Of a stretch of 64,000 bases of DNA, positions 1,286-63,194 are shown in pieces. The notes under the pieces are model-generated. The model was not told the origin of the DNA. It was given only the letters and a program-made list of their open reading frames with translations, and did not search any database. Source of the DNA: Escherichia coli (lineage in GTDB: Bacteria > Pseudomonadota > Gammaproteobacteria > Enterobacterales > Enterobacteriaceae); the NCBI RefSeq assembly GCF_003018255.1, contig NZ_CP027440.1; one strand, written 5' to 3'. Position 1 is the first letter of the stretch, and each line of letters begins with the position of its first letter. A program made the position numbers and the translations under genes.

Positions 1286-1765
1286 TTACCACTTATCTAA
1301 TTCATTAAAGCCTTTTGCCTGTAGAGCTTCAACTAATGATAAGCCATCAGGAAATAGCAATTCCGGCGCAATTTCAAACAGTGGCCACAGCATAAAGCCG
1401 CGATTTTTCATATCGTAGTGCGGAACGGTCAGACGTTCGGTATTTATTACTTCATTACCAAACAGCATGATGTCGAGATCCAGCGTGCGCGGTCCCCAGC
1501 GTTCAGCTTTACGGACGCGACCTTGCTGCAATTCGATACGCTGTGTGTGATTGAGTAGCTCTTCAGGGGCAAGAGTGGTTTTCAGCGCGACGGCTGCATT
1601 TAAGTAATCGGGTTGATCTTGCGGCCCCAGCGGTGGGGTGCGGTAAAACGAAGAAACAGCAAGAATGCGGCTTTCTGGAATATCGCCTAATGCTTTCAGG
1701 GCAGCATTGACCTGCTCCAGCGGAGAGGCCAGATTGCTGCCGATGGCAATATACGCCACTGTCAT
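1286..1765 (-). CDS. folK: 2-amino-4-hydroxy-6-hydroxymethyldihydropteridine pyrophosphokinase (HPPK)
   Basis: ORF track 1286..1765 (-), 159 aa, [12 protein letters not shown]...; recognised HPPK sequence; start overlaps pcnB stop by 4 nt. Confidence 0.95.
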
Positions 1766-8567: not shown

Positions 8568-8660
8568 AGACCAAAGCAAATTTGAGAGATATCTTCTTCT
8601 GTCTTGCAACAGAAGAACAGAAAATCGGGCTTTTGCGCCTGAATATTGCGGAGAAAAAGC

Positions 8661-13651: not shown

Positions 13652-14449
13652 ATGCAGGAATACACGAATCATTCCGATACCACTTTTGCACTGCGTAATA
13701 TCTCCTTTCGTGTGCCAGGGCGCACGCTTTTGCATCCGCTGTCGTTAACCTTTCCTGCCGGGAAAGTGACTGGTTTGATTGGTCACAACGGTTCTGGTAA
13801 ATCCACTCTGCTCAAAATGCTTGGCCGTCATCAGCCACCGTCGGAAGGCGAAATTCTTCTTGATGCCCAGCCGCTGGAAAGCTGGAGCAGCAAAGCGTTC
13901 GCCCGCAAAGTGGCTTATTTGCCGCAGCAGCTTCCTCCGGCAGAAGGGATGACCGTGCGTGAACTGGTGGCGATTGGTCGTTACCCGTGGCATGGCGCAC
14001 TGGGGCGCTTTGGTGCGGCAGATCGCGAAAAGGTCGAAGAGGCGATTTCGCTGGTTGGCTTAAAACCGCTGGCGCATCGGCTGGTCGATAGTCTCTCTGG
14101 CGGCGAACGTCAGCGGGCGTGGATCGCTATGCTGGTGGCGCAGGATAGCCGTTGTCTGTTGCTCGACGAACCGACCTCGGCGCTGGATATCGCCCACCAG
14201 GTTGATGTGCTGGCGCTGGTGCATCGTTTAAGTCAGGAACGTGGTCTGACGGTCATTGCCGTGCTGCACGATATTAATATGGCTGCGCGCTACTGTGATT
14301 ATCTGGTCGCCCTGCGCGGTGGTGAAATGATTGCTCAGGGAACGCCTGCGGAAATTATGCGCGGCGAAACCCTCGAAATGATTTATGGCATCCCGATGGG
14401 TATTCTGCCGCATCCGGCGGGTGCTGCACCTGTGAGTTTTGTTTATTGA
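13652..14449 (+). CDS. fhuC: Iron(III)-hydroxamate ABC transporter ATP-binding protein
   Basis: ORF track 13529..14449 (+); start at ATG 13652 (MQEYTNHSDTTFALRN..., 265 aa); Walker A GHNGSGKST, signature LSGGERQRA. Confidence 0.93.
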   Translation: MQEYTNHSDTTFALRNISFRVPGRTLLHPLSLTFPAGKVTGLIGHNGSGKSTLLKMLGRHQPPSEGEILLDAQPLESWSSKAFARKVAYLPQQLPPAEGMTVRELVAIGRYPWHGALGRFGAADREKVEEAISLVGLKPLAHRLVDSLSGGERQRAWIAMLVAQDSRCLLLDEPTSALDIAHQVDVLALVHRLSQERGLTVIAVLHDINMAARYCDYLVALRGGEMIAQGTPAEIMRGETLEMIYGIPMGILPHPAGAAPVSFVY

Positions 14450-15339
14450 TGAGCGGCTTACCTCTTATTTCGCGCCGCCGACTGTTAACGGCGATGGCGC
14501 TTTCTCCGTTGTTATGGCAGATGAATACCGCCCACGCGGCGATTATTGATCCCAATCGTATTGTGGCGCTGGAGTGGTTGCCGGTGGAATTACTGCTGGC
14601 GCTCGGCATCGTGCCTTACGGCGTGGCGGACACCATCAACTATCGCCTGTGGGTCAGCGAACCGCCATTGCCGGACTCAGTGATTGACGTTGGTTTGCGT
14701 ACAGAACCCAACCTTGAACTGCTGACCGAAATGAAACCGTCGTTTATGATCTGGTCGGCAGGATATGGCCCTTCACCAGAAATGCTGGCACGTATTGCGC
14801 CGGGGCGCGGATTTAACTTCAGCGACGGCAAACAGCCGCTGGCGATGGCGCGTAAATCACTGACGGAAATGGCAGATTTACTTAACCTGCAAAGCGCAGC
14901 AGAAACGCATTTAGCGCAATATGAAGACTTTATCCGCAGCATGAAACCCCGCTTTGTGAAGCGTGGTGCACGCCCGTTATTGCTGACGACGCTTATCGAT
15001 CCGCGCCATATGTTGGTCTTCGGTCCAAACAGCTTGTTCCAGGAAATTCTTGATGAGTACGGCATCCCAAATGCCTGGCAAGGGGAAACCAACTTCTGGG
15101 GCAGTACCGCCGTCAGTATCGATCGTCTGGCGGCGTATAAAGACGTTGATGTGCTCTGTTTTGATCACGACAACAGCAAAGACATGGATGCGCTAATGGC
15201 AACCCCGCTGTGGCAGGCCATGCCGTTTGTCCGTGCAGGACGTTTTCAGCGCGTTCCGGCGGTCTGGTTCTATGGCGCGACGCTTTCGGCAATGCACTTT
15301 GTGCGTATTCTGGATAACGCCATCGGAGGTAAAGCGTGA
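14449..15339 (+). CDS. fhuD: Iron(III)-hydroxamate periplasmic binding protein
   Basis: ORF track 14446..15339 (+); ATG 14449 overlaps fhuC stop by 1 nt; MSGLPLISRRRLLTAMALSPLLWQ (Tat-like signal). Confidence 0.92.
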   Translation: MSGLPLISRRRLLTAMALSPLLWQMNTAHAAIIDPNRIVALEWLPVELLLALGIVPYGVADTINYRLWVSEPPLPDSVIDVGLRTEPNLELLTEMKPSFMIWSAGYGPSPEMLARIAPGRGFNFSDGKQPLAMARKSLTEMADLLNLQSAAETHLAQYEDFIRSMKPRFVKRGARPLLLTTLIDPRHMLVFGPNSLFQEILDEYGIPNAWQGETNFWGSTAVSIDRLAAYKDVDVLCFDHDNSKDMDALMATPLWQAMPFVRAGRFQRVPAVWFYGATLSAMHFVRILDNAIGGKA

Positions 15340-17318: not shown

Positions 17319-17324
17319 TAGAAT

Positions 17325-17345
17325 GCCTCGCCCGGTGGGCGAGGC
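17325..17345. terminator. Hairpin gcctcgcc-cggtg-ggcgaggc between convergent fhuB and hemL (candidate bidirectional terminator)
   Basis: Read from sequence; occupies most of the 34-nt fhuB-hemL spacer. Confidence 0.4.
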
Positions 17346-17352
17346 AAAATCA

Positions 17353-20360: not shown

Positions 20361-20705
20361 ATGAGTGATGACGTAGCACTGCCGCTGGAGTTTACCGACG
20401 CAGCAGCCAACAAAGTTAAAAGCCTGATCGCTGACGAAGATAACCCGAATCTGAAATTACGCGTGTATATTACCGGTGGCGGTTGCAGCGGCTTCCAGTA
20501 TGGTTTCACCTTTGATGATCAGGTGAACGAAGGCGATATGACCATCGAAAAACAGGGCGTTGGCCTGGTGGTTGATCCGATGAGCCTGCAATATCTGGTC
20601 GGCGGTTCCGTTGACTATACCGAAGGTCTGGAAGGTTCTCGTTTCATCGTGACCAACCCGAACGCGAAAAGCACCTGCGGTTGCGGTTCTTCCTTTAGCA
20701 TCTAA
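20361..20705 (+). CDS. erpA: Fe-S cluster insertion protein ErpA (A-type carrier)
   Basis: ORF track 20328..20705 (+); start at ATG 20361 ([13 protein letters not shown]..., 114 aa); C-terminal CGCGSSF. Confidence 0.92.
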
Positions 20706-21412: not shown

Positions 21413-22213
21413 TTAATCTACCTGTGAAAGCGCATTACAGAGCTGTTGTGCAGCGAGGATAATACGTGGGCTTGCACGTTCAAACCAGTCACTCGTGAGA
21501 GGAATAACGGGAATTTTGAGCTGTTCACCCCAGTATTGTTTGATTTTAGGAATTTGGTCCGGTCCGCCTGTAATGACAATCGCCTGTGGCGCGCGTGCTA
21601 ACACCTGTTCGCGGCTAACTTGCGGCCAGGGAACCCGGCTGTCTTTAAAGATGTTTTCTCCGCCACAAACTTCGAGTACCTGGTTTTGAATCGACTCTTT
21701 TCCACTAGTAAATGGCGGATTAATGCCGAATTGCAGAAAAACACGTTTTTTAGGTTTATCAGCATATTGCGCTTTCAATTGCGCGTACTGGTCCAGCAGG
21801 GATTGCGCGGCTTGTTCGGCCTTATCCGGTTGCGGACTCCAGGGGACCAGTTGACGTAACGCATTGGCAATTTGTTCAATGCTTGTCGCATCGACCCACA
21901 TCACTTTTATTCCCAGAGAAGCCAGCTGGTCAACCTGCCGCTCGGCATTACCTCCACGCCAGGCAATCACCAGATCGGGTTTCAGCGCCACAATGCGTTC
22001 CAGATTCATCCCCTGCCAGGTGGAAACCTGCTCAATTTTTTGCGCTTGTGGAGGATAGTCGGAATAGCTGCTGACCCCAACCGGCGTGATCCCGGCGGCA
22101 AAGGCAAGTTCAGTGTTGGCGGGAGAAAGCGTGATGACGCGCGGCGCGGCGTTGAGCCACAGCGGCGCGAGAAAAGACAGGGCGACCAGCGCCCTGAACA
22201 GTGACTTAGCCAT
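21413..22213 (-). CDS. btuF: Vitamin B12 periplasmic binding protein
   Basis: ORF track 21413..22240 (-); start at ATG 22211-22213 ([22 protein letters not shown] signal peptide, 266 aa). Confidence 0.9.
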
Positions 22214-38489: not shown

Positions 38490-38593
38490 GGATAATCCGG
38501 CTACAGAGAGTCGCGCTATTTGTTAGCGTAGGGCTTCAGTGATATAGTCTGCGCCATCTGATCGTAAGTAGTTGGCTTTATAAGGTCAGGTAT

Positions 38594-38619
38594 GCCGTGG
38601 TTTTACACGGCTTTTTTTT
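38594..38619 (+). terminator. Intrinsic terminator after dxr (gccgtg-gtttta-cacggc + TTTTTTTT)
   Basis: Read from sequence in the dxr-ispU spacer. Confidence 0.6.
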
Positions 38620-38674
38620 GTATAGGCTTCAGTATTCCTGAGTACCGTAAACCCTGTCAGGGAATAAGAAACGC

Positions 38675-39436
38675 GTGATGTTGTCTGCTACTCAACCACT
38701 TAGCGAAAAATTGCCAGCGCATGGCTGTCGTCATGTTGCGATCATTATGGACGGCAATGGTCGCTGGGCAAAAAAGCAAGGGAAGATTCGTGCCTTTGGG
38801 CATAAAGCCGGGGCAAAATCCGTCCGCCGGGCTGTCTCTTTTGCGGCCAACAACGGTATTGAGGCGTTAACGCTGTATGCCTTTAGTAGTGAAAACTGGA
38901 ACCGACCAGCGCAGGAAGTCAGTGCGTTAATGGAACTGTTTGTGTGGGCGCTCGATAGCGAAGTAAAAAGTCTGCACCGACATAACGTGCGTCTGCGTAT
39001 TATTGGCGATACCAGTCGCTTTAACTCGCGTTTGCAAGAACGTATTCGTAAATCTGAAGCGCTAACAGCCGGGAATACCGGTCTGACGCTGAATATTGCG
39101 GCGAACTACGGTGGACGTTGGGATATAGTCCAGGGAGTCAGGCAACTGGCTGAAAAGGTGCAGCAAGGAAACCTGCAACCAGATCAGATAGATGAAGAGA
39201 TGCTAAACCAGCATGTCTGTATGCATGAACTGGCCCCTGTAGATTTAGTAATTAGGACTGGGGGGGAGCATCGCATTAGTAACTTTTTGCTTTGGCAAAT
39301 TGCCTATGCCGAACTTTACTTTACAGATGTTCTCTGGCCCGATTTCGATGAACAAGACTTTGAAGGGGCGTTAAATGCCTTTGCTAATCGAGAGCGTCGT
39401 TTCGGCGGCACCGAGCCCGGTGATGAAACAGCCTGA
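38675..39436 (+). CDS. ispU: Undecaprenyl diphosphate synthase
   Basis: ORF track 38675..39436 (+), 253 aa; GTG start; cis-prenyltransferase motif IIMDGNGRWA. Confidence 0.93.
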   Translation: MMLSATQPLSEKLPAHGCRHVAIIMDGNGRWAKKQGKIRAFGHKAGAKSVRRAVSFAANNGIEALTLYAFSSENWNRPAQEVSALMELFVWALDSEVKSLHRHNVRLRIIGDTSRFNSRLQERIRKSEALTAGNTGLTLNIAANYGGRWDIVQGVRQLAEKVQQGNLQPDQIDEEMLNQHVCMHELAPVDLVIRTGGEHRISNFLLWQIAYAELYFTDVLWPDFDEQDFEGALNAFANRERRFGGTEPGDETA

Positions 39437-40317: not shown

Positions 40318-41670
40318 ATGCTGAGTTTTCTCTGGGATTTGGCTTCGTTCATCGTTGCACTGGGTGTACTTATCACCGTGCATGAATTTGGTCATTTCTG
40401 GGTTGCCCGGCGTTGTGGTGTTCGCGTTGAGCGTTTCTCAATAGGGTTTGGTAAGGCGCTCTGGCGGCGAACTGATAAGCTCGGCACCGAATATGTTATC
40501 GCCCTGATCCCGCTGGGCGGTTATGTCAAAATGCTGGATGAGCGCGCAGAACCGGTCGTTCCGGAACTCCGCCACCATGCCTTCAATAATAAATCTGTCG
40601 GCCAACGAGCGGCGATTATTGCCGCAGGTCCGGTTGCAAACTTCATTTTTGCTATCTTTGCCTACTGGCTGGTTTTTATTATTGGTGTGCCTGGCGTACG
40701 TCCGGTGGTTGGCGAAATAGCAGCCAATTCGATAGCTGCGGAAGCACAAATTGCACCAGGTACGGAACTAAAAGCCGTAGATGGTATCGAAACGCCTGAT
40801 TGGGATGCCGTGCGTTTGCAGTTGGTCGATAAAATTGGCGATGAAAGCACCACCATTACGGTAGCGCCATTTGGCAGCGACCAACGGCGGGATGTAAAGC
40901 TCGATTTACGTCACTGGGCGTTTGAGCCTGATAAAGAAGATCCGGTAACTTCGCTGGGGATTCGTCCTCGTGGGCCGCAAATTGAACCTGTACTGGAAAA
41001 TGTGCAGCCAAACTCGGCGGCAAGCAAGGCAGGTTTGCAAGCAGGCGACAGGATCGTTAAAGTCGATGGTCAGCCCTTAACGCAGTGGGTGACCTTTGTG
41101 ATGCTTGTCCGGGATAACCCGGGTAAATCCTTAGCGTTAGAAATCGAAAGGCAGGGGAGTCCCTTGTCTTTGACATTAATCCCGGAGAGTAAACCGGGTA
41201 ATGGTAAAGCGATTGGTTTTGTCGGTATTGAGCCGAAAGTCATTCCTTTGCCAGATGAGTATAAAGTTGTACGCCAGTATGGGCCGTTCAACGCCATCGT
41301 CGAAGCCACGGACAAAACGTGGCAGCTGATGAAGCTGACGGTCAGTATGCTGGGAAAATTGATCACCGGTGATGTGAAACTGAACAACCTCAGTGGGCCG
41401 ATCTCTATCGCCAAGGGGGCTGGGATGACAGCGGAACTCGGGGTTGTTTATTACCTGCCGTTTCTTGCGCTTATTAGCGTGAACTTAGGGATAATTAACC
41501 TGTTTCCGTTGCCCGTACTTGACGGGGGGCATCTGCTGTTCCTTGCGATCGAAAAGATCAAGGGCGGACCGGTATCCGAGCGGGTTCAAGACTTTTGTTA
41601 TCGCATTGGCTCGATTTTGCTGGTGCTGTTAATGGGGCTTGCACTTTTCAATGATTTCTCTCGGTTATGA
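40318..41670 (+). CDS. rseP: Site-2 intramembrane zinc metalloprotease RseP (sigma-E pathway)
   Basis: ORF track 40273..41670 (+); start at ATG 40318 ([16 protein letters not shown]..., 450 aa); HEFGH zinc motif, PDZ region, LDGG motif. Confidence 0.93.
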
Positions 41671-41681
41671 GAGTTAGTTAG

Positions 41682-44132
<2,451 letters not shown>

Positions 44133-44253
44133 GTGTTCTCCACAAAGGAATGTAGTGGTAGTGTAGCGATGACTTTAGGCGATCAATATAAGATCGCCGG
44201 GCCACGCAAAGAACTGCACCCTCCGGTGCAAATGGGATGGTAAGGAGTTTATT

Positions 44254-44739
44254 GTGAAAAAGTGGTTATTAGCTGCAGGTCTCGGTTTAGCACTGGCAAC
44301 TTCTGCTCAGGCGGCTGACAAAATTGCAATCGTCAATATGGGCAGCCTGTTCCAGCAGGTAGCGCAGAAAACCGGAGTTTCTAACACGCTGGAAAATGAG
44401 TTCAAAGGCCGTGCCAGCGAACTGCAGCGTATGGAAACCGATCTGCAGGCTAAAATGAAAAAGCTGCAGTCCATGAAAGCGGGCAGCGATCGCACCAAAC
44501 TGGAAAAAGACGTGATGGCCCAGCGCCAGACTTTTGCTCAGAAAGCGCAGGCTTTTGAGCAGGATCGCGCACGTCGTTCCAACGAAGAACGCGGCAAACT
44601 GGTTACTCGTATCCAGACTGCTGTGAAATCCGTTGCCAACAGCCAGGATATCGATCTGGTTGTTGATGCAAACGCCGTTGCTTACAACAGCAGCGATGTA
44701 AAAGACATCACTGCCGACGTACTGAAACAGGTTAAATAA
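44254..44739 (+). CDS. skp: Periplasmic chaperone Skp
   Basis: ORF track 44254..44739 (+), 161 aa; GTG start; signal peptide [20 protein letters not shown]. Confidence 0.95.
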
Positions 44740-44742
44740 GTA

Positions 44743-45768
44743 ATGCCTTCAATTCGACTGGCTGATTTAGCGCAGCAGTTGGATGCAGAACTACACGGTG
44801 ATGGCGATATCGTCATCACCGGCGTTGCGTCCATGCAATCTGCACAAACAGGTCACATCACGTTCATGGTTAACCCAAAATACCGTGAGCATTTAGGCTT
44901 GTGCCAGGCGTCCGCGGTTGTCATGACCCAGGACGATCTTCCTTTCGCGAAAAGTGCCGCGCTGGTAGTGAAGAATCCCTACCTGACTTACGCGCGCATG
45001 GCGCAAATTTTAGATACCACGCCGCAGCCCGCGCAGAACATTGCACCCAGTGCGGTGATTGACGCGACGGCGAAGCTGGGTAACAACGTATCGATTGGCG
45101 CTAACGCGGTGATTGAGTCCGGCGTTGAACTGGGCGATAACGTGATTATCGGTGCCGGTTGCTTCGTAGGTAAAAACAGCAAAATCGGTGCAGGTTCGCG
45201 TCTCTGGGCGAACGTAACCATTTACCATGAGATCCAGATCGGTCAGAATTGCCTGATCCAGTCCGGAACAGTGGTAGGCGCAGACGGCTTTGGTTATGCC
45301 AACGATCGTGGTAACTGGGTGAAGATCCCACAGATTGGTCGCGTAATTATTGGCGATCGCGTGGAGATCGGTGCCTGCACTACCATTGATCGTGGCGCGC
45401 TGGATGACACTGTTATTGGCAATGGTGTGATCATTGATAACCAGTGCCAGATTGCACATAACGTCGTGATTGGCGACAATACGGCAGTTGCCGGTGGCGT
45501 CATTATGGCGGGCAGCCTGAAAATTGGTCGTTACTGCATGATCGGCGGAGCCAGCGTAATCAACGGGCATATGGAAATATGCGACAAAGTGACGGTTACG
45601 GGCATGGGTATGGTGATGCGTCCCATCACTGAACCAGGCGTCTATTCCTCAGGCATTCCGCTGCAACCCAACAAAGTCTGGCGCAAAACCGCTGCACTGG
45701 TGATGAACATTGATGACATGAGCAAGCGTCTGAAATCGCTTGAGCGCAAGGTTAATCAACAAGACTAA
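44743..45768 (+). CDS. lpxD: UDP-3-O-(3-hydroxymyristoyl)glucosamine N-acyltransferase
   Basis: ORF track 44743..45768 (+), 341 aa; left-handed beta-helix hexapeptide repeats. Confidence 0.96.
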
Positions 45769-45872
45769 CGTTCCATCTTTTGTTCGCCAAACTTTACGGC
45801 CTGTCTCATTCTTACGATTGCGGCAGGCCGTGTTATTATTGTCGTTTCTTATATTTTGACAGGAAGAGTATC

Positions 45873-46328
45873 TTGACTACTAACACTCATACTCTGCAGA
45901 TTGAAGAGATTTTAGAACTTCTGCCGCACCGTTTCCCGTTCTTACTGGTGGATCGCGTGCTGGATTTTGAAGAAGGTCGTTTTCTGCGCGCAGTAAAAAA
46001 TGTCTCTGTCAATGAGCCATTCTTCCAGGGCCATTTCCCTGGAAAACCGATTTTCCCGGGTGTGCTGATTCTGGAAGCAATGGCACAGGCAACAGGTATT
46101 CTGGCGTTTAAAAGCGTAGGAAAACTGGAACCGGGTGAGCTGTACTACTTCGCCGGTATTGACGAAGCGCGCTTTAAGCGCCCGGTCGTGCCTGGCGATC
46201 AAATGATCATGGAAGTCACTTTCGAAAAAACGCGCCGCGGCCTGACCCGTTTTAAAGGGGTTGCTCTGGTCGACGGTAAAGTAGTTTGCGAAGCAACGAT
46301 GATGTGTGCTCGTAGCCGGGAGGCCTGA
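45873..46328 (+). CDS. fabZ: 3-hydroxyacyl-ACP dehydratase FabZ
   Basis: ORF track 45780..46328 (+); start placed at TTG 45873 ([27 protein letters not shown]..., 151 aa), matching the known non-AUG start. Confidence 0.9.
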
Positions 46329-46331
46329 TAC

Positions 46332-47120
46332 GTGATTGATAAATCCGCCTTTGTGCATCCAACCGCCATTGTGGAAGAGGGCGCGTCGATTGGCGCGAAC
46401 GCTCACATTGGTCCTTTTTGTATCGTTGGACCCCATGTCGAAATTGGTGAGGGTACCGTACTGAAATCTCACGTTGTCGTGAATGGTCATACTAAAATTG
46501 GCCGCGACAATGAGATTTATCAGTTCGCCTCCATCGGCGAAGTCAACCAGGATCTTAAATATGCTGGCGAACCGACCCGTGTGGAAATCGGCGATCGTAA
46601 CCGCATTCGCGAAAGCGTCACCATTCATCGTGGCACAGTCCAGGGCGGTGGATTGACGAAGGTGGGCAGCGACAACTTACTGATGATCAACGCGCACATT
46701 GCGCACGATTGTACGGTAGGTAACCGCTGTATTCTCGCCAACAACGCAACGCTGGCGGGTCACGTATCGGTTGACGACTTCGCGATCATCGGCGGCATGA
46801 CCGCAGTCCATCAGTTCTGCATCATTGGTGCGCACGTGATGGTTGGCGGCTGCTCCGGTGTGGCGCAGGACGTCCCTCCTTATGTCATTGCGCAGGGTAA
46901 CCACGCAACGCCGTTCGGTGTCAATATCGAAGGGCTGAAGCGCCGCGGATTCAGCCGTGAGGCGATTACCGCTATCCGCAATGCGTATAAGCTGATTTAT
47001 CGTAGCGGTAAAACGCTCGATGAAGTGAAACCGGAAATTGCTGAACTGGCGGAAACATATCCGGAAGTGAAAGCCTTTACCGATTTCTTTGCACGCTCAA
47101 CGCGCGGTCTGATTCGTTAA
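46332..47120 (+). CDS. lpxA: UDP-N-acetylglucosamine O-acyltransferase
   Basis: ORF track 46332..47120 (+), 262 aa; GTG start; hexapeptide repeats. Confidence 0.96.
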
Positions 47121-48268
47121 TGACTGAACAGCGTCCATTAACGATTGCCCTGGTCGCCGGAGAAACCTCCGGCGATATCCTGGGGGCCGGTTTAATCCGC
47201 GCTCTGAAAGAACGTGTGCCCAACGCCCGCTTTGTTGGTGTTGCCGGGCCACGAATGCAGGCTGAAGGCTGCGAAGCCTGGTACGAAATGGAAGAACTGG
47301 CGGTGATGGGCATTGTTGAAGTGCTCGGTCGTCTGCGTCGCTTACTGCATATTCGTGCCGATCTGACAACGCGTTTTGGCGAACTGAAGCCAGATGTTTT
47401 TGTCGGTATTGATGCGCCTGACTTCAATATTACCCTTGAAGGTAACCTTAAAAAGCAGGGTATCAAAACCATTCATTATGTCAGTCCGTCCGTCTGGGCG
47501 TGGCGACAGAAACGCGTTTTCAAAATAGGCAGAGCCACCGATCTGGTGCTCGCATTTCTGCCTTTCGAAAAAGCGTTTTATGACAAATATAACGTGCCGT
47601 GCCGTTTTATCGGTCACACCATGGCTGATGCCATGCCGTTAGATCCAGATAAAAACGCCGCGCGTGATGTGCTGGGGATCCCTCACGATGCCCACTGTCT
47701 GGCATTGTTGCCGGGAAGCCGTGGCGCGGAAGTGGAGATGCTTAGCGCCGATTTCCTGAAAACGGCCCAGCTTTTGCGCCAGACGTATCCTGATCTGGAG
47801 ATCGTGGTGCCGCTGGTAAATGCCAAACGCCGTGAGCAATTTGAACGCATCAAAGCTGAAGTCGCGCCAGACCTTTCGGTTCATATGCTGGATGGAATGG
47901 GCCGTGAGGCGATGGTCGCCAGCGATGCGGCGCTATTGGCGTCGGGTACGGCTGCACTGGAGTGCATGCTGGCGAAATGCCCGATGGTGGTGGGGTATCG
48001 CATGAAGCCTTTCACCTTCTGGTTGGCGAAGCGGCTGGTGAAAACCGATTATGTCTCGCTGCCAAACCTGCTGGCGGGCAGAGAGTTAGTTAAAGAATTA
48101 TTGCAGGAAGAGTGTGAGCCGCAAAAACTGGCTGCGGCGCTGTTACCGCTGTTGGCGAACGGGAAAACCAGCCACGCGATGCACGATACCTTCCGTGAAC
48201 TGCATCAGCAGATCCGCTGCAATGCCGATGAGCAGGCGGCACAAGCCGTTCTGGAGTTAGCACAATGA
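47120..48268 (+). CDS. lpxB: Lipid-A-disaccharide synthase
   Basis: ORF track 47120..48268 (+), 382 aa; 1-nt overlap with lpxA stop. Confidence 0.96.
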
Positions 48269-48861
48269 TCGAATTTGTTTATCCGCACACGCACCTGGTT
48301 GCGGGTGTGGATGAAGTCGGACGCGGGCCGTTAGTTGGCGCGGTCGTCACCGCTGCGGTGATCCTCGACCCGGCGCGCCCGATTGCCGGGCTGAATGATT
48401 CCAAAAAGCTGAGCGAAAAACGCCGTCTGGCGCTCTGCGAAGAGATCAAAGAGAAAGCGTTGAGCTGGAGTCTGGGCCGAGCGGAACCTCACGAAATCGA
48501 CGAACTGAATATTTTACACGCGACCATGCTGGCGATGCAGCGTGCCGTCGCTGGGCTGCATATTGCGCCGGAATATGTGTTGATTGATGGTAACCGCTGC
48601 CCGAAATTACCGATGCCTGCGATGGCTGTGGTGAAAGGCGATAGCCGCGTACCGGAAATCAGTGCCGCGTCTATCCTGGCGAAAGTGACGCGTGACGCCG
48701 AAATGGCGGCGCTGGATATTGTTTTCCCGCAATATGGTTTTGCCCAACATAAAGGGTATCCAACCGCTTTTCATCTGGAAAAACTGGCTGAATATGGCGC
48801 GACTGAACATCATCGTCGCAGCTTTGGGCCTGTCAAACGCGTACTGGGACTTGCGTCCTGA
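48265..48861 (+). CDS. rnhB: Ribonuclease HII
   Basis: ORF track 48265..48861 (+), 198 aa; [11 protein letters not shown] motif; 4-nt overlap with lpxB. Confidence 0.95.
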
Positions 48862-48897
48862 TTCTTGTGTCGAGATTAAGTAAACCGGAATCTGAAG

Positions 48898-51800
48898 ATG
48901 TCTGAACCACGTTTCGTACACCTGCGGGTGCACAGCGACTACTCGATGATCGATGGTCTGGCCAAAACCGCACCGCTGGTAAAAAAGGCGGCGGCGTTGG
49001 GTATGCCAGCACTGGCGATCACCGATTTCACCAACCTTTGCGGTCTGGTGAAGTTCTACGGAGCGGGACATGGCGCAGGGATTAAGCCTATCGTCGGGGC
49101 AGATTTTAATGTCCAGTGCGACCTGCTGGGTGATGAGTTAACCCACCTGACGGTGCTGGCGGCGAACAATACCGGCTATCAGAATCTGACGTTGCTGATC
49201 TCAAAAGCGTATCAGCGCGGGTACGGTGCAGCTGGGCCGATCATCGATCGCGACTGGCTTATCGAATTAAACGAAGGGTTGATCCTTCTTTCCGGCGGGC
49301 GCATGGGCGACGTCGGACGCAGTCTTTTGCGTGGTAACAGCGCGCTGGTAGATGAGTGTGTCGCGTTTTATGAAGAACACTTCCCGGATCGCTATTTTCT
49401 CGAGCTGATCCGCACTGGAAGGCCGGACGAAGAAAGCTATCTGCACGCTGCGGTGGAACTGGCGGAAGCGCGCGGTTTGCCCGTCGTGGCGACCAACGAC
49501 GTGCGCTTTATCGACAGCAGCGACTTTGACGCACACGAAATCCGCGTCGCGATCCACGACGGCTTTACCCTAGATGATCCTAAACGCCCGCGTAACTATT
49601 CGCCGCAGCAATATATGCGTAGCGAAGAGGAGATGTGCGAGCTGTTTGCCGACATCCCCGAAGCCCTTGCCAACACCGTTGAGATCGCCAAACGCTGTAA
49701 CGTAACTGTGCGTCTTGGTGAATACTTCCTGCCGCAGTTCCCGACCGGGGACATGAGTACCGAAGATTATCTGGTCAAGCGTGCAAAAGAGGGCCTGGAA
49801 GAGCGTCTGGCATTTTTATTCCCTGACGAGGAAGAACGTCTTAAGCGTCGTCCGGAGTATGACGAACGTCTGGATACTGAACTTCAGGTTATCAACCAGA
49901 TGGGCTTCCCGGGCTACTTCCTCATCGTTATGGAATTTATCCAGTGGTCGAAAGATAACGGCGTACCGGTAGGGCCAGGCCGTGGCTCCGGTGCGGGTTC
50001 ACTGGTGGCCTACGCGCTGAAAATCACCGACCTTGATCCGCTGGAATTTGACCTGCTGTTCGAACGTTTCCTTAACCCGGAACGTGTCTCCATGCCTGAC
50101 TTTGACGTTGACTTCTGTATGGAGAAACGCGATCAGGTTATCGAACACGTGGCGGACATGTACGGTCGTGATGCGGTATCGCAGATCATCACCTTCGGTA
50201 CGATGGCGGCGAAAGCGGTGATCCGCGACGTAGGTCGCGTGCTGGGGCATCCGTACGGCTTTGTCGATCGTATCTCGAAACTGATCCCGCCCGATCCGGG
50301 GATGACGCTGGCGAAAGCGTTTGAAGCCGAGCCGCAGCTGCCGGAAATCTACGAAGCGGATGAAGAAGTTAAGGCGCTGATCGACATGGCGCGCAAACTG
50401 GAAGGGGTCACCCGTAACGCCGGTAAGCACGCCGGTGGGGTGGTTATCGCGCCGACCAAAATTACCGATTTTGCGCCGCTTTACTGCGATGAAGAGGGCA
50501 AACATCCGGTCACCCAGTTTGATAAAAGCGACGTTGAATACGCCGGACTGGTGAAGTTCGACTTCCTTGGTTTGCGTACGCTCACCATCATCAACTGGGC
50601 GCTGGAGATGATCAACAAGCGGCGGGCGAAGAATGGCGAGCCGCCGCTGGATATCGCCGCGATCCCGCTGGATGATAAGAAAAGCTTCGACATGCTGCAA
50701 CGCTCGGAAACCACTGCGGTATTCCAGCTTGAATCGCGCGGCATGAAGGACCTGATCAAGCGTCTGCAACCTGACTGCTTCGAAGATATGATCGCACTGG
50801 TGGCACTGTTCCGCCCCGGTCCGTTGCAATCAGGGATGGTGGATAACTTTATCGACCGTAAACATGGTCGCGAAGAGATCTCCTATCCGGACGTGCAGTG
50901 GCAGCATGAAAGCCTGAAACCGGTACTGGAGCCAACCTACGGCATCATCCTGTATCAGGAACAGGTCATGCAGATTGCCCAGGTGCTTTCTGGTTATACC
51001 CTCGGTGGCGCAGATATGCTGCGTCGTGCGATGGGTAAGAAAAAGCCGGAAGAGATGGCTAAGCAGCGTTCTGTATTTGCTGAAGGTGCAGAAAAGAACG
51101 GAATCAACGCCGAACTGGCGATGAAAATCTTCGACCTGGTGGAGAAATTCGCGGGTTACGGATTTAACAAATCGCACTCTGCGGCCTATGCTTTGGTGTC
51201 ATATCAAACGTTATGGCTGAAAGCGCACTATCCGGCAGAGTTTATGGCGGCGGTAATGACCGCCGATATGGACAATACCGAGAAGGTGGTGGGCCTGGTG
51301 GATGAGTGCTGGCGGATGGGGCTGAAAATCCTGCCACCAGATATAAACTCCGGTCTTTACCATTTCCACGTCAACGACGACGGCGAAATCGTGTATGGTA
51401 TTGGCGCGATCAAAGGGGTAGGTGAAGGTCCGATTGAGGCCATCATCGAAGCCCGTAATAAAGGCGGCTACTTCCGCGAACTGTTTGATCTCTGCGCCCG
51501 AACCGACACCAAAAAGTTAAACCGGCGGGTGCTGGAAAAACTGATCATGTCCGGGGCGTTTGACCGTCTTGGGCCACACCGTGCGGCGCTGATGAACTCG
51601 CTGGGCGATGCGTTAAAAGCGGCAGATCAACACGCGAAAGCGGAAGCTATCGGTCAGGCCGATATGTTCGGCGTGCTGGCCGAAGAACCGGAACAAATTG
51701 AACAATCCTACGCCAGCTGCCAACCGTGGCCGGAGCAGGTGGTATTAGATGGGGAACGTGAAACGTTAGGTCTGTACCTGACGGGACACCCTATCAACCA

Positions 51801-52380
51801 GTATCTAAAAGAGATTGAGCGTTATGTCGGAGGCGTAAGGCTGAAAGACATGCACCCGACAGAACGTGGTAAAGTCATCACGGCTGCGGGGCTCGTTGTT
51901 GCCGCGCGGGTTATGGTCACCAAGCGCGGCAATCGTATCGGTATCTGCACGCTGGATGACCGTTCCGGGCGGCTGGAAGTGATGTTGTTTACTGACGCCC
52001 TGGATAAATACCAGCAATTGCTGGAAAAAGACCGCATACTTATCGTCAGCGGACAGGTCAGCTTTGATGACTTCAGCGGTGGGCTTAAAATGACCGCTCG
52101 CGAAGTGATGGATATTGACGAAGCCCGGGAAAAATATGCTCGCGGGCTTGCTATCTCGCTGACGGACAGGCAAATTGATGACCAGCTTTTAAACCGACTC
52201 CGTCAGTCTCTGGAACCCCACCGCTCTGGGACAATTCCAGTACATCTCTACTATCAGAGGGCGGATGCACGCGCGCGGTTGCGTTTTGGCGCGACGTGGC
52301 GTGTCTCTCCGAGCGATCGTTTATTAAACGATCTCCGTGGCCTCATTGGTTCGGAGCAGGTGGAACTGGAGTTTGACTAA
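48898..52380 (+). CDS. dnaE: DNA polymerase III alpha subunit
   Basis: ORF track 48898..52380 (+), 1160 aa; PHP domain [20 protein letters not shown]..., polymerase core. Confidence 0.97.
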
Positions 52381-52392
52381 TACAGGAATACT

Positions 52393-53352
52393 ATGAGTCT
52401 GAATTTCCTTGATTTTGAACAGCCGATTGCAGAGCTGGAAGCGAAAATCGATTCTCTGACTGCGGTTAGCCGTCAGGATGAGAAACTGGATATTAACATC
52501 GATGAAGAAGTGCATCGTCTGCGTGAAAAAAGCGTAGAACTGACGCGTAAAATCTTCGCCGATCTCGGTGCATGGCAGATTGCGCAACTGGCACGCCATC
52601 CACAGCGTCCTTATACCCTGGATTACGTTCGCCTGGCATTTGATGAATTTGACGAACTGGCTGGCGACCGCGCGTATGCAGACGATAAAGCTATCGTCGG
52701 TGGTATCGCCCGTCTCGATGGTCGTCCGGTGATGATCATTGGTCATCAAAAAGGTCGTGAAACCAAAGAAAAAATTCGCCGTAACTTTGGTATGCCAGCG
52801 CCAGAAGGTTACCGTAAAGCACTGCGTCTGATGCAAATGGCTGAACGCTTTAAGATGCCTATCATCACCTTTATCGACACCCCGGGGGCTTATCCTGGCG
52901 TGGGCGCAGAAGAGCGTGGTCAGTCTGAAGCCATTGCACGCAACCTGCGTGAAATGTCTCGCCTCGGCGTACCGGTAGTTTGTACGGTTATCGGTGAAGG
53001 TGGTTCTGGCGGTGCGCTGGCGATTGGCGTGGGCGATAAAGTGAATATGCTGCAATACAGCACCTATTCCGTTATCTCGCCGGAAGGTTGTGCGTCCATT
53101 CTGTGGAAGAGCGCCGACAAAGCGCCGCTGGCGGCTGAAGCGATGGGTATCATCGCTCCGCGTCTGAAAGAGCTGAAACTGATCGACTCCATCATCCCGG
53201 AACCGCTGGGCGGCGCTCATCGTAACCCGGAAGCGATGGCGGCATCGTTGAAAGCGCAACTGCTGGCGGATCTGGCCGATCTCGACGTGTTAAGCACTGA
53301 AGATTTAAAAAATCGTCGTTATCAGCGCCTGATGAGCTACGGTTACGCGTAA
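52393..53352 (+). CDS. accA: Acetyl-CoA carboxylase carboxyltransferase alpha subunit
   Basis: ORF track 52393..53352 (+), 319 aa. Confidence 0.97.
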
Positions 53353-53368
53353 TTCGCAAAAGTTCTGA

Positions 53369-53397
53369 AAAAGGGTCACTTCGGTGGCCCTTTTTTA
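53369..53397 (+). terminator. Intrinsic terminator after accA (gggtcac-UUCG loop-gtggccc + TTTTTT)
   Basis: Read from sequence; UUCG tetraloop and U-tract. Confidence 0.65.
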
Positions 53398-53450
53398 TCG
53401 CCACGGTTTGAGCAGGCTATGATTAAGGAAGGATTTTCCAGGAGGAACAC

Positions 53451-55592
53451 ATGAACATCATTGCCATTATGGGACCGCATGGCGTCTTTTATAAAGATGA
53501 GCCCATCAAAGAACTGGAGTCGGCGCTGGTGGCGCAAGGCTTTCAGATTATCTGGCCACAAAACAGCGTTGATTTGCTGAAATTTATCGAACATAACCCT
53601 CGAATTTGCGGCGTGATTTTTGACTGGGATGAGTACAGTCTCGATTTATGTAGCGATATCAATCAGCTTAATGAATATCTCCCGCTTTATGCCTTCATCA
53701 ACACCCACTCGACGATGGATGTCAGCGTGCAGGATATGCGGATGGCGCTCTGGTTTTTTGAATATGCGCTGGGGCAGGCGGAAGATATCGCCATTCGTAT
53801 GCGTCAGTACACCGACGAATATCTTGATAACATTACACCGCCGTTCACGAAAGCCTTGTTTACCTACGTCAAAGAGCGGAAGTACACCTTTTGTACGCCG
53901 GGTCATATGGGCGGCACCGCATATCAAAAAAGCCCGGTTGGCTGTCTGTTTTATGATTTTTTCGGCGGGAATACTCTTAAGGCTGATGTCTCTATTTCGG
54001 TTACCGAGCTTGGTTCGTTGCTCGACCACACCGGGCCACACCTGGAAGCGGAAGAGTACATCGCGCGGACTTTTGGCGCGGAACAGAGTTATATCGTTAC
54101 CAACGGAACATCGACATCGAACAAAATTGTGGGTATGTACGCCGCGCCATCCGGCAGTACGCTGTTAATTGACCGCAATTGTCATAAATCGCTGGCGCAT
54201 CTGTTGATGATGAACGATGTAGTGCCAGTCTGGCTGAAACCGACGCGTAATGCGTTGGGGATTCTTGGTGGGATCCCGCGCCGTGAATTTACTCGCGACA
54301 GCATCGAAGAGAAAGTCGCTGCTACCACGCAAGCACAATGGCCGGTTCATGCGGTGATTACCAACTCCACTTATGATGGCTTGCTCTACAACACCGACTG
54401 GATCAAACAGACGCTGGATGTCCCGTCGATTCACTTCGATTCTGCCTGGGTGCCGTACACCCATTTTCATCCGATCTACCAGGGTAAAAGTGGTATGAGC
54501 GGCGAGCGTGTTGCGGGAAAAGTGATCTTCGAAACGCAATCGACCCACAAAATGCTGGCGGCGTTATCGCAGGCTTCGCTGATCCACATTAAAGGCGAGT
54601 ATGACGAAGAGGCGTTTAACGAAGCCTTTATGATGCATACCACCACCTCGCCCAGTTATCCCATTGTTGCTTCGGTTGAGACGGCAGCGGCGATGCTGCG
54701 TGGTAATCCGGGCAAACGGCTGATTAACCGTTCAGTAGAACGAGCGCTGCATTTTCGCAAAGAGGTCCAGCGGCTGCGGGAAGAGTCTGACGGCTGGTTT
54801 TTCGATATCTGGCAACCGCCGCAGGTGGATGAAGCCGAATGCTGGCCCGTTGCGCCAGGCGAACGATGGCACGGCTTTAACGATGCGGATGCCGATCATA
54901 TGTTTCTCGATCCGGTTAAAGTCACTATTCTGACACCGGGGATGGACGAGCAGGGCAATATGAGCGAGGAGGGGATCCCGGCGGCGCTGGTGGCAAAATT
55001 CCTCGACGAACGTGGGATCGTAGTAGAGAAAACCGGCCCGTATAACCTGCTGTTTCTTTTTAGTATTGGCATCGATAAAACCAAGGCAATGGGATTATTG
55101 CGTGGGTTGACGGAATTCAAACGCTCTTACGATCTCAACCTGCGGATCAAAAATATGCTACCCGATCTCTATGCTGAAGATCCCGATTTCTACCGCAATA
55201 TGCGTATTCAGGATCTGGCGCAAGGGATCCATAAGCTGATTCGTAAACACGATCTTTCCGGTTTGATGTTGCGGGCATTTGATACCTTGCCGGAGATGAT
55301 CATGACGCCACATCAGGCATGGCAGAGACAGATTAAAGGCGAAGTGGAAACCATTGCGCTGGAACAACTGGTCGGTAGAGTATCGGCAAATATGATCCTG
55401 CCTTATCCACCTGGCGTACCGCTGCTGATGCCAGGAGAAATGCTGACCAAAGAGAGCCGCACGGTACTCGATTTTCTACTGATGCTTTGTTCCGTAGGGC
55501 AACATTACCCCGGTTTTGAAACGGATATTCACGGCGCGAAACAGGACGAAGACGGCGTTTACCGCGTACGAGTCCTAAAAATGGCGGGATAA
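53451..55592 (+). CDS. ldcC: Constitutive lysine decarboxylase
   Basis: ORF track 53451..55592 (+), 713 aa; Orn/Lys/Arg decarboxylase fold-type I PLP enzyme; location after accA identifies it as ldcC rather than cadA. Confidence 0.95.
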   Translation: MNIIAIMGPHGVFYKDEPIKELESALVAQGFQIIWPQNSVDLLKFIEHNPRICGVIFDWDEYSLDLCSDINQLNEYLPLYAFINTHSTMDVSVQDMRMALWFFEYALGQAEDIAIRMRQYTDEYLDNITPPFTKALFTYVKERKYTFCTPGHMGGTAYQKSPVGCLFYDFFGGNTLKADVSISVTELGSLLDHTGPHLEAEEYIARTFGAEQSYIVTNGTSTSNKIVGMYAAPSGSTLLIDRNCHKSLAHLLMMNDVVPVWLKPTRNALGILGGIPRREFTRDSIEEKVAATTQAQWPVHAVITNSTYDGLLYNTDWIKQTLDVPSIHFDSAWVPYTHFHPIYQGKSGMSGERVAGKVIFETQSTHKMLAALSQASLIHIKGEYDEEAFNEAFMMHTTTSPSYPIVASVETAAAMLRGNPGKRLINRSVERALHFRKEVQRLREESDGWFFDIWQPPQVDEAECWPVAPGERWHGFNDADADHMFLDPVKVTILTPGMDEQGNMSEEGIPAALVAKFLDERGIVVEKTGPYNLLFLFSIGIDKTKAMGLLRGLTEFKRSYDLNLRIKNMLPDLYAEDPDFYRNMRIQDLAQGIHKLIRKHDLSGLMLRAFDTLPEMIMTPHQAWQRQIKGEVETIALEQLVGRVSANMILPYPPGVPLLMPGEMLTKESRTVLDFLLMLCSVGQHYPGFETDIHGAKQDEDGVYRVRVLKMAG

Positions 55593-57449: not shown

Positions 57450-57704
57450 TCAGGACTCGCTCACCACCACCGTACCGATTTCCGGGTGGCTAAAGCTGGT
57501 AATTTTATCCAGACGCAGCTCGCGGGTTGTACCAGCGGCCTCGACGACCAGATACTCCACATTTTTGCGGGAGACTAAATCGCTGGCCTTCGCCTGCAAT
57601 TTTTCGCCATCTTTCAGCTCAAGTGTCAGCATTAAATGATGCTGGCAGGCGAGCTCAAGATTATCGTAATCATCACAATTGATTGGTTGATACGTATCAT
57701 TCAT
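57450..57704 (-). CDS. rof: Rho-specific inhibitor of transcription termination (Rof/YaeO)
   Basis: ORF track 57450..57710 (-); start at second ATG ([23 protein letters not shown]..., 84 aa). Confidence 0.88.
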
Positions 57705-57897
57705 TGACATAATCGCTCACCAGTAAGTTTGCCGCAGCGTATGCTGCTTTTTCCCTGACAGCCTCAGAAAGGGCGTCGTCGGCAGCCATTTCATTCAGCA
57801 CTTTCAAAACGCAGCCCAGCGCGTCCGGAACGTATCCTAAGTCTCCGCTGGCGATTTCCGCGTACCGCTTGCGTATTAACTCACAATATTTTTCCAC
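57697..57897 (-). CDS. yaeP: Small conserved protein of unknown function (UPF0253 family)
   Basis: ORF track 57697..57915 (-); start tentatively at the GTG giving [24 protein letters not shown]... (66 aa); 8-nt overlap with rof start. Confidence 0.75.
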
Positions 57898-58062: not shown

Positions 58063-58608
58063 ATGGCGCTTAAAGCGACAATTTATAAAGCGACGGTTAA
58101 TGTGGCCGATCTCGACCGCAACCAGTTTCTCGATGCCTCTCTGACGCTGGCGCGCCACCCTTCAGAAACCCAGGAGCGCATGATGCTGCGCCTGCTGGCG
58201 TGGCTGAAATATGCTGATGAACGTCTGCAATTTACCCGCGGTTTGTGTGCCGATGATGAGCCGGAAGCGTGGCTGCGTAACGATCATTTGGGCATTGATT
58301 TGTGGATTGAACTGGGGCTGCCGGATGAGCGGCGGATTAAGAAAGCCTGCACCCAGGCCGCAGATGTGGCACTGTTTGCCTATAATAGTCGGGCGGCGCA
58401 AATCTGGTGGCAGCAAAATCAGAGCAAATGTGCGCAGTTTGCCAATCTTTCCATCTGGTATCTGGACGATGAACAACTGGCGAAAGTAAGCGCCTTTGCC
58501 GATCGTACCATGACGCTGCAGGCAACGATTCAGGATGGCGTGATCTGGTTATCGGATGATAAGAATAATCTGGAAGTGAACTTAACCGCCTGGCAACAAC
58601 CTTCATGA
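58063..58608 (+). CDS. yaeQ: YaeQ family protein (function unknown)
   Basis: ORF track 58063..58608 (+), 181 aa. Confidence 0.88.
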
Positions 58609-59751: not shown

Positions 59752-59754
59752 TTG

Positions 59755-59778
59755 AAAGCCGGAGCATTCTCCGGCTTT
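59755..59778. terminator. Bidirectional terminator hairpin (aaagccgga-gcattc-tccggcttt) between convergent nlpE and yaeF
   Basis: Read from sequence; A-tract before and T-tract after the stem. Confidence 0.55.
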
Positions 59779-62486: not shown

Positions 62487-63194
62487 TTAACGCGGTTCCA
62501 GCGCAAAGACTTCAAAACCTGCGTCGGTGACGCGCCAGCGAACGTTAAAATCATGCAGCCAGACGGCATAGGTTTTGCCCGTTTCCTCACCTTTACGATA
62601 GGCCGGGCGCGGGTCCTGCGCTAGTACTTCGCGGATAAACAGCGTTAACTGCGGATAACGCTTCTCCAGCGTCAAAAGCTGCTTTTCGACCTCTGCGGTA
62701 AAACTCACCGCCATCTCTGCAGCTGGCGCACTTTGCGCATAGCTGGCACTGGCATTTGGAAGCGATTCGGCAAAGGGGAGATACGGTTTGATATCCACTA
62801 CCGGCGTACCATCGACCAGATCCAGACTGCCGAGCTTCAGAATCACGCTGTCTTTATGGCAAACAACCTCTTTCAGCTCTACCAGCGACATACCAATTGG
62901 GTTAGGGCGAAAAGTGGAGCGTGTTGCGAAAACCCCCATTCTGGCATTACCGCCAAGACGAGGCGGACGCACAGTCGGACGCCAGCCGCCTTCCATCGTT
63001 TGATGAAAGACGAAAAGTATCCATAAATGGCTGAACGCTTCCAGGCCGCGAACGGCGTCGGCTTGGTTGTAGGGAGCAATGAGATGCAGTTCGCCGTTGG
63101 CGCTTTTTACCAGACCTGGTTGGCGCGGAACGGCGAATTTTTCTTTATAGGGCGAGCGAATAACGCCTATTTGCTCGAACTGGAAACTGCTCAT
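62487..63194 (-). CDS. tsaA: tRNA (adenine37-N6)-methyltransferase TsaA (YaeB)
   Basis: ORF track 62487..63194 (-), 235 aa. Confidence 0.92.
   Translation of the reverse strand: MSSFQFEQIGVIRSPYKEKFAVPRQPGLVKSANGELHLIAPYNQADAVRGLEAFSHLWILFVFHQTMEGGWRPTVRPPRLGGNARMGVFATRSTFRPNPIGMSLVELKEVVCHKDSVILKLGSLDLVDGTPVVDIKPYLPFAESLPNASASYAQSAPAAEMAVSFTAEVEKQLLTLEKRYPQLTLFIREVLAQDPRPAYRKGEETGKTYAVWLHDFNVRWRVTDAGFEVFALEPR

Follow-up and report, generated by a model that had tools for sequence, protein, structure and literature searches.

Stop/start overlaps at ten gene junctions in a 64-kb segment of the Escherichia coli chromosome: a common operon layout with plausible translational coupling

Overlapping gene junctions in a core chromosome segment

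The stretch of DNA analysed here over its full length of 64 kb (from here: the window) is a core segment of the E. coli chromosome reaching from folK to rcsF. It carries a yadV/yadN-type fimbrial locus, folK, pcnB, fhuACDB, the rpsB-tsf region, the string bamA-skp-lpxD-fabZ-lpxA-lpxB-rnhB-dnaE and rcsF. A 3.5-kb probe from the window matched 5423 of 5426 complete E. coli genomes, with at least 99% identity in 9 only. The closest reference was NZ_AP045072.1 (99.8-99.98% identity), which is collinear with the window except for one 1-nt indel. Its 57 annotated genes were transferred onto the window, where all 57 form intact open reading frames (ORFs). The overall identity between K-12 and the window is 96.9%.

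Ten co-directional neighbour pairs in the window have a stop/start overlap of 1 to 14 bases (Table 1). In each of them both genes are intact and on the same strand, and the upstream stop codon shares bases with the downstream start codon or lies 3′ of it. At the lpxA/lpxB junction, the final base of the lpxA stop codon TAA (47118-47120) is also the first base of the lpxB ATG, while at the other end of lpxB, a gene annotated in 5423 E. coli genomes, the rnhB ATG at 48265 and the lpxB TGA together form ATGA. For rof there are two candidate starts, ATG 57710 chosen by PGAP, giving an overlap of 14 nt with yaeP, and ATG 57704 used in K-12, two codons downstream, giving 8 nt; the two genes overlap with either. 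The stop/start overlaps of this window are thus real and of the classic -4, -1 and -8 kinds.

A preliminary description of this DNA had listed nine of these overlaps. All nine were found in the sequence, and the lengths quoted there also hold in the K-12 annotation, including 8 nt for rof/yaeP, which becomes 14 nt with the PGAP start. The pairs themselves were right, although four minus-strand pairs had been named opposite to the direction of translation. The list lacked the tenth overlap, yadW>erpA (8 nt), and the range 47117-48268 assigned to all nine brackets lpxB and its two junctions, whereas the other seven lie elsewhere.

Table 1. Overlapping junctions, the lpxB gene and predicted hairpins in the window. 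Ratios are medians of downstream/upstream values over 12 conditions, computed from K-12 RNA-seq and ribosome-profiling tables (PMC9624429).
Feature	Position	Strand	Sequence or description	Basis or remark	Footprint ratio	mRNA ratio
pcnB stop / folK start	1762-1765	-	ATGA, 4 nt	junction table	0.38	0.19
fhuC stop / fhuD start	14447-14451	+	TGATG, 1 nt at base 14449		0.30	0.79
fhuD stop / fhuB start	15336-15339	+	GTGA, 4 nt		0.90	1.57
yadW (21-aa small protein) stop / erpA start	20361-20368	+	8 nt			
Terminator-like hairpin in btuF	22172-22196	-	7-bp stem (6 G-C), then UCUUUUCUC	consensus scan		
mtnN stop / btuF start	22206-22213	-	ATGGCTAA, 8 nt		0.07	0.14
Predicted stem 1	47114-47144	+	11 bp with one bulge	folding		
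lpxA stop / lpxB start	47118-47122	+	TAATG, 1 nt at base 47120	identical in K-12	0.15	0.32
lpxB coding sequence	47120-48268	+	lipid-A-disaccharide synthase, 382 aa	intact ORF		
Predicted stem 2	47153-47176	+	perfect 10-bp GC-rich hairpin, GUCGCCGGAG AAAC CUCCGGCGAU	folding		
lpxB stop / rnhB start	48265-48268	+	ATGA, 4 nt		1.26	0.47
yaeP stop / rof start	57697-57710	-	8 or 14 nt	start-codon choice	0.71	0.84
yaeQ stop / arfB start	58605-58608	+	ATGA, 4 nt		0.25	1.44
rcsF stop / tsaA (trmO) start	63191-63194	-	ATGA, 4 nt		0.11	0.47

Overlaps occur at 10 of the 46 same-strand junctions of the window (22%), a frequency that is normal for E. coli, in which reported shares of overlapping pairs range from 15% to >30% (PMC5318159; PMC7538156). 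Seven of the 18 junctions spaced within -14 to +14 nt lie exactly at -4 or -1, an excess over a uniform spread (binomial P = 1.2e-4). The spacings -4, -1 and -8 are those enriched across all prokaryotes, and -4 overlaps arise easily (review PMC12548453). The overlap pattern is therefore above chance and a real structure, and it is also the norm. In strand, spacings, frequency and embedded Shine-Dalgarno sequences the window is a typical sample of the overlaps of bacterial and archaeal operons (-4 NTGA, -1 TRATG and -8), from which it shows no difference.

All five breaks caused by large indels between the window and K-12 lie in non-overlapping intergenic DNA or within fhuA. The earlier argument that overlaps speak against insertions at these junctions is true but trivial. 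Rfam matches in the window were limited to t44, CssrA and the HtrA thermometer, with none at any junction. Consensus scans of positions 41500-53500 returned 8 promoter sites (9.0 in shuffled sequences) and 14 terminator sites (12.8 in shuffled sequences), in neither case an excess; the scans therefore provide no evidence for or against internal promoters.

Initiation signals and published K-12 expression

A usable Shine-Dalgarno sequence embedded in the upstream gene was found for fhuB, folK, rnhB and erpA. That of fhuB, GGAGGU within fhuD, is strong (-10.8 kcal/mol), and that of rnhB, GGAG, is located within lpxB 7 nt upstream of the start. For fhuD, btuF, lpxB, rof, arfB and tsaA (6/10) it is weaker than -3 kcal/mol, i.e. 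essentially none. The overlapped starts had a median of -2.8 kcal/mol, versus -5.5 kcal/mol for genes that lead a unit or are separated from the gene upstream by more than 30 nt (one-sided P = 0.04). Compared with the other genes of the window, predicted start accessibility was lower (0.345 versus 0.51; P = 0.012) and hairpins in the first 110 nt were stronger (-16.3 versus -11.9 kcal/mol; P = 0.026), these contrasts being several related tests of 10 genes against 45-47 and confounded by the coding sequence upstream of overlapped starts, which is G+C-richer than intergenic DNA. All three contrasts agree and point the same way, suggesting that overlapped starts are poor stand-alone initiation sites. 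Weak Shine-Dalgarno sequences and less accessible starts are what would be expected of starts that depend on upstream ribosomes.

Since the ten junction sequences carry only 0-2 mismatches per 60 nt relative to K-12, published data for K-12, a strain different from that of the window, were applied to them by inference. The footprint ratio is below 1 in 8 of the 9 overlapping pairs with data (Table 1), while it spans 0.05 to 11.5 in short-gap pairs. At five junctions mRNA drops 2- to 7-fold (ratios 0.14-0.47), so that the low downstream output is explained in part by mRNA abundance stepping down right after the junction. The overlaps do not equalise expression, and the downstream gene usually runs at 7-40% of the upstream rate. 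The spread of translation-efficiency (TE) ratios in overlapping pairs equals that in ten short-gap pairs (Mann-Whitney P = 0.9), and the TEs of the two genes of a pair correlate weakly over the 12 conditions (median Spearman 0.21). Genome-wide, too, overlapping pairs vary as much as others (Burkhardt et al. 2017, PMC5318159).

The string rseP-bamA-skp-lpxD-fabZ-lpxA-lpxB-rnhB-dnaE, which is regulated by sigma-E, has been described as one regulon unit, with lpxA-lpxB-rnhB listed as one unit (PMC2731931), and the same genes stand in the same order in the window. Its mRNA is uneven, at about 1000 units from skp to lpxA versus about 170 for lpxB and rnhB (PMC5318159). The supplement of that study gives an mRNA level of 1241 and a TE of 0.185 for lpxA, 186 and 0.205 for lpxB, and 163 and 0.435 for rnhB. 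From lpxA to lpxB, mRNA thus falls 6.7-fold (PMC5318159) or 3.1-fold (PMC9624429), with a TE ratio lpxB/lpxA of 1.1 or 0.46, respectively; the fall from mtnN to btuF is 7-fold (PMC9624429). Per mRNA, the ribosome load of rnhB is about double that of lpxB; rnhB is therefore not fed solely by ribosomes terminating on lpxB and must initiate independently.

Cross-species conservation, hairpins and RNA 3′ ends

An LpxB alignment built from 41 diverse relatives led to the loci of 80 species, ranging from Escherichia albertii to Pseudomonas, Xanthomonas and Betaproteobacteria. Long LpxB fusion proteins were present among the database representatives. LpxA is encoded directly upstream of LpxB in 75 of the 80 species and RnhB directly downstream in 71. 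Among the 75 lpxA>lpxB loci, the genes overlap for every plausible start in 14 and are ambiguous in 6, while 55 have a gap between them. In the six closest Enterobacteriaceae the spacing is exactly -1; other distances are 0 (a Klebsiella), +2 (Acerihabitans), +1/+2 (Pseudomonas) or 59-133 nt (Pasteurellaceae, Vibrio, Shewanella). Nine loci with LpxB identity of at least 80% allowed the lpxB>rnhB spacing to be measured, and all of them have -4; the 71 loci divide into 27 unambiguous overlaps, 22 ambiguous cases and 22 gaps, the overlaps taking the forms -1, -4, -8 and -11. Judged from these sequences, the operons are conserved and the overlap geometry is labile, in agreement with the easy origin of -4 overlaps. 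The earlier characterisation of the overlaps as typical of conserved operons therefore holds for gene order, whereas the exact overlaps vary across species; the comparison of junctions across genomes that had been proposed as a check, here run on 80 species, went against it at lpxA/lpxB, with an unambiguous overlap in only 14 of 75 loci.

The 86 nt at positions 47100-47185 are predicted to fold with a minimum free energy of -35.1 kcal/mol (z = -3.83). In the predicted stem 1, lpxB codons 5-8 would pair with a stretch made up of the final codons of lpxA, its UAA stop and the AUG of lpxB. This pairing is kept in E. albertii, in Superficieibacter (with one A-U to G-C change) and in one Enterobacter, has one mismatch in Citrobacter and is broken in three other Enterobacteriaceae. 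The in vivo DMS Gini index of the lpxB head is 0.57-0.60, high for its table (PMC5318159 supplement). Stem 2 occupies lpxB codons 12-19, where the AGE-SGD motif, invariant in LpxB, is encoded. Eight Enterobacteriaceae share the stem unchanged while their flanking synonymous sites vary, some loci of Shewanella, Aeromonas and Rheinheimera have it in perfect form, and it is also found where lpxA and lpxB lie 59-133 nt apart. Under a synonymous-codon null, 7.8 pairs were observed versus 6.8 expected, with P < 0.05 in 16 of 79 loci, and codon identity exceeded the gene-wide background, a comparison that is circular because loci had been chosen for having the hairpin. Among 71 distinct sequences, covariation was absent: 75.5% of cells were paired versus 75.1% after shuffling, 79 of 500 shuffles reached the observed value and one pair had changed on both sides. 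Stem 2 was therefore dropped as a candidate conserved or selected RNA element, since codon composition and the protein motif account for its pairing. Within E. coli, positions 47100-47185 are identical in 4942 of 5423 genomes versus 22 for a single mid-gene control segment, which is suggestive of conservation.

From the fold and the mRNA step we had derived an expected K-12 3′ end at 203400-203415 before consulting the Term-seq catalogue of Adams et al. 2021 (PMC7815308). In this catalogue a 3′ end is recorded in two conditions at 203409 (+), 61 nt into lpxB; this corresponds to window position 47181, 5 nt past stem 2. The same entries place very strong ends at 178423/178421 (-), 39 nt into btuF, and class them as the primary 3′ end of mtn, internal to btuF (PMC7815308). 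They correspond to window positions 22174 and 22172, and the RNA ends 4 nt after the stem of the btuF hairpin. The hairpin proper (22196-22178) begins 10 nt after the mtnN stop, and the whole feature (22172-22196) lies in btuF codons 6-15. In these entries, both ends are Rho-independent by the test with the Rho inhibitor bicyclomycin (BCM), with Rho scores of 1.08 for lpxB and 1.37 for btuF, and their intrinsic-terminator scores of 1.83 and 2.32 lie below the authors' threshold of 3.0 (PMC7815308). The catalogue lists no comparable 3′ ends for the other eight pairs (PMC7815308). A terminator-like site at 47375-47394 in lpxB was rejected as the cause of the mRNA drop, as its hairpin alone reaches only -9.1 kcal/mol and the catalogue lists no mapped 3′ end there.

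While the lpxB end at 203409 and the btuF ends at 178423/178421 are thus entries of the catalogue, their placement right after an overlapping junction and their link to the mRNA step-down are drawn by the present analysis. On these entries, the upstream transcript would largely end within the first codons of btuF or lpxB, which fits the 7-fold and 3-fold mRNA drops. With mapped 3′ ends 39-61 nt past two junctions, these pairs would not be simple uniform transcripts. The listing of lpxA-lpxB-rnhB as one unit contrasts with mRNA ratios of 0.14-0.47 at five junctions and with these mapped 3′ ends.

Plausible translational coupling and alternative explanations

We consider it probable (roughly 0.8) that the ten overlaps are of the ordinary, short stop/start kind (NTGA, TRATG and 8-nt forms) between co-directional core-genome genes, that no special element is involved and that linked translation is possible. 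An overlap would place the downstream start codon within the footprint of the ribosome terminating on the upstream gene. Such a ribosome is able to unfold mRNA structure nearby and perhaps to re-initiate, and upstream translation would thereby help that of the downstream gene. Such dependence is likely for lpxB, fhuD, btuF, arfB, tsaA and rof, with their weak Shine-Dalgarno sequences and structured starts, and would be clearest for lpxB, whose AUG, together with the end of lpxA, is tied up in a predicted stem; fhuB, folK, rnhB and erpA can also initiate alone from their embedded Shine-Dalgarno sequences, as rnhB demonstrably does. The best indirect argument for coupling is that lpxB, with a near-zero Shine-Dalgarno and a predicted paired AUG, nevertheless reaches 0.5-1.1 times the TE of lpxA. 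Coupling is plausible at about six junctions and, if present, far from one-to-one. The pervasive translational coupling claimed in the preliminary description agrees with six weak, structured starts, but is not supported as such by footprint ratios of 0.07-1.26 and TE ratios that spread as widely as those of short-gap pairs. An overlap by itself does not imply coupling. In addition, rnhB carries more ribosomes than lpxB, and mapped 3′ ends lie inside lpxB and btuF.

The coupled E. coli pairs trpB-trpA, galT-galK, prfA-prmC, hyfHI, astDB and menDH overlap or are in near contact, as do the pairs described here, and some of their downstream starts likewise have weak initiation signals. Their coupling was established by experiment. 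For the pairs described here, overlap geometry, signal strengths and the cross-species pattern were determined in this analysis, expression ratios and 3′ ends come from published K-12 data, and the coupling itself is an inference. A literature search returned no coupling experiment on any of the ten pairs and no study of a fhu or mtn-btuF terminator. The literature on the mechanism is divided. Reporter assays showed coupling for 4 of 5 native E. coli pairs with an overlap, and the authors ascribed it to termination-reinitiation (Huber et al., PMC6728339). Upon depletion of RRF, ribosome-density ratios of overlapping pairs were unchanged, and unfolding with de novo initiation was favoured (Saito et al., PMC7538156); the lack of an effect argues against re-initiation as the main route.

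It is also conceivable, if somewhat improbable, that the overlaps are a neutral by-product of compact genomes without regulatory meaning, and that each gene's own start region and mRNA structure set its expression. Their neutral origin would be easy: any NTG start that is followed by A reads NTGA, and a gene that loses its stop codon runs on to its neighbour. The lability of the exact lpxA/lpxB and lpxB/rnhB overlaps under a preserved gene order points in this direction, as do TE ratios that are no tighter than those of non-overlapping neighbours. Against it, six downstream starts lacking initiation signals of their own are still translated, lpxB and rnhB overlap, or could do so, in 49 of 71 species that span several orders, and direct tests found coupling in 4 of 5 other E. 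coli pairs (PMC6728339). That some overlaps are annotation artefacts caused by a wrong downstream start codon is very unlikely. The two in-frame ATGs of rof, 6 nt apart and annotated differently (8 versus 14 nt), would allow it, as would the 22 of 71 lpxB/rnhB junctions that are ambiguous between an overlapping and a later start; however, apart from rof and yadW/erpA, K-12 and PGAP agree on all eight -1/-4/-8 junctions, the closest relatives have a single candidate start for both lpxB and rnhB, and the BtuF N-terminus, judged from its sequence, would be a signal peptide beginning at the annotated Met.

For lpxA>lpxB and mtnN>btuF, the key feature might instead be a hairpin inside the downstream gene that makes the upstream 3′ end and acts as a step-down valve. 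By weak termination or by blocking an exonuclease, it would let a fraction of transcripts continue, and ribosomes crossing it could modulate read-through. Several observations are consistent with such a valve: Rho-independent ends are mapped 61 nt (lpxB) and 39 nt (btuF) inside the downstream gene, 4-5 nt past GC stems; the lpxB position had been predicted from the fold ahead of the look-up; the mRNA drop is 6.7- or 3.1-fold at lpxA>lpxB and 7-fold at mtnN>btuF; the btuF hairpin fits the terminator consensus; and positions 47100-47185 are identical in most E. coli genomes (4942 of 5423 versus 22 for the single control segment). However, the intrinsic-terminator scores of 1.83 and 2.32 given in these entries remain below 3.0, covariation in stem 2 was negative and the AGE-SGD motif with codon composition accounts for its pairing, the stem is also present where lpxA and lpxB are 59-133 nt apart, no such 3′ ends are catalogued for the other eight pairs, and the mRNA step is placed only approximately, from per-gene ratios. 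On balance this explanation is unlikely, and we regard as more doubtful still the full version, in which hairpins in the first 40-60 nt of btuF and lpxB make the upstream 3′ end and, combined with the overlap, form a step-down valve with ribosome-dependent read-through.

The layout of ordinary overlaps with plausible coupling, which we prefer, is already known and common in bacteria, a textbook feature of operons. The one point that is more than trivial is a modest, testable lead, namely that at two junctions a hairpin and a 3′ end lie shortly after the start of the downstream gene. The same pairs in K-12, with a downstream output of 7-126% of the upstream rate, caution against reading equal expression, or one uniform transcript, from an overlap alone. 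If the valve exists, it would offer cells a simple way to set the LpxA:LpxB and MtnN:BtuF ratios, and translational coupling would be tied to transcript completion in an essential lipid A gene and in a gene for vitamin B12 uptake.

Lineage of the window and differences from its relatives

The E. coli lineage of the window is uncommon. Among the 5423 E. coli genomes matched by the 3.5-kb probe from the lpxB region, only 9 reached an identity of at least 99% over these 3.5 kb (window 46000-49500), and an exact copy of an 86-mer from the middle of lpxB (window 47600-47685) was present in only 22 genomes. The large length differences between the window and strain K-12 were all located within fhuA or in non-overlapping intergenic DNA, with approximately 100-170 nt extra in K-12 3′ of hrpB and in the fhuB-hemL and nlpE-yaeF intervals. 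FhuA comprises 729 aa in the window compared to 747 aa in K-12, and the identity of the mrcB-fhuACDB block to K-12 is only 92%. The yadN-type gene of the window, which shares only 82% identity with yadN of K-12, is intact, while in the closest reference genome (NZ_AP045072.1) it contains a 1-nt insertion (window position 615) and is annotated as a frameshifted pseudogene.

For pcnB, an AUU start codon has been reported before. According to K-12 data, the translation efficiency of folK, which overlaps the pcnB stop codon, is twice that of pcnB.

Features of the window discussed in the text
Feature	Window position	K-12 position	Strand	Basis
yadN-type fimbrial subunit gene, intact	334-990		-	
pcnB start codon ATT	3157-3159		-	also in reference annotation
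Large length differences from K-12	8570-8576, 12452-12860, 17320-17351, 27373-27484, 59752-59776			
Terminator-like hairpin with U tract, btuF codons 6-15	22172-22196	178421-178445	-	sequence and published 3′ ends
HtrA (degP) 5′ UTR thermometer	24595-24640		+	Rfam
t44 (tff) RNA, upstream of rpsB	33532-33618		+	Rfam
CssrA, between rpsB and tsf	34457-34566		+	Rfam
skp>lpxD, gap only 3 nt	44739-44743		+	
fabZ>lpxA, gap only 3 nt	46328-46332		+	
Perfect 10-bp hairpin in lpxB codons 12-19, and RNA 3′ end	47153-47181	203381-203409	+	prediction and published Term-seq
Strong predicted hairpin, rnhB codons 5-17, -19.0 kcal/mol	48279-48314		+	folding

RNA elements and LpxB-domain proteins

Besides the elements recognized by Rfam, the K-12 annotation contains the small RNA IspZ in the ispC (dxr)-ispU interval (window ~38490-38677, + strand), where Rfam did not recognize any element in the window. 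Adams et al. (PMC7815308) describe the 5′ UTR of ispU as containing a strong intrinsic terminator.

Among the database representatives, P0045, P0052, P0072, P0099, P0121 and P0129 are proteins of 616-1174 aa with an N-terminal LpxB domain. Their length may reflect fusion to genes lying downstream, or run-through in gene calling.

Hairpins and unequal output at closely spaced genes

When 55 genes of the window were scored for early-ORF hairpins, the top three were those of rnhB, lpxB and btuF. The terminator-like hairpin within btuF begins 10 nt 3′ of the mtnN stop codon; strong published RNA 3′ ends are located at it, and the mRNA level of btuF is ~14% of that of mtnN. At lpxA>lpxB, the published Term-seq RNA 3′ end lies 5 nt beyond the hairpin, and this coincides with lpxB mRNA being 3- to 7-fold less abundant than lpxA mRNA in two data sets for K-12. 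A covariation test for selected structure at this hairpin was negative. The skp>lpxD pair is a further example of close spacing without equal output, with lpxD being translated in K-12 at ~5% of the rate of skp.
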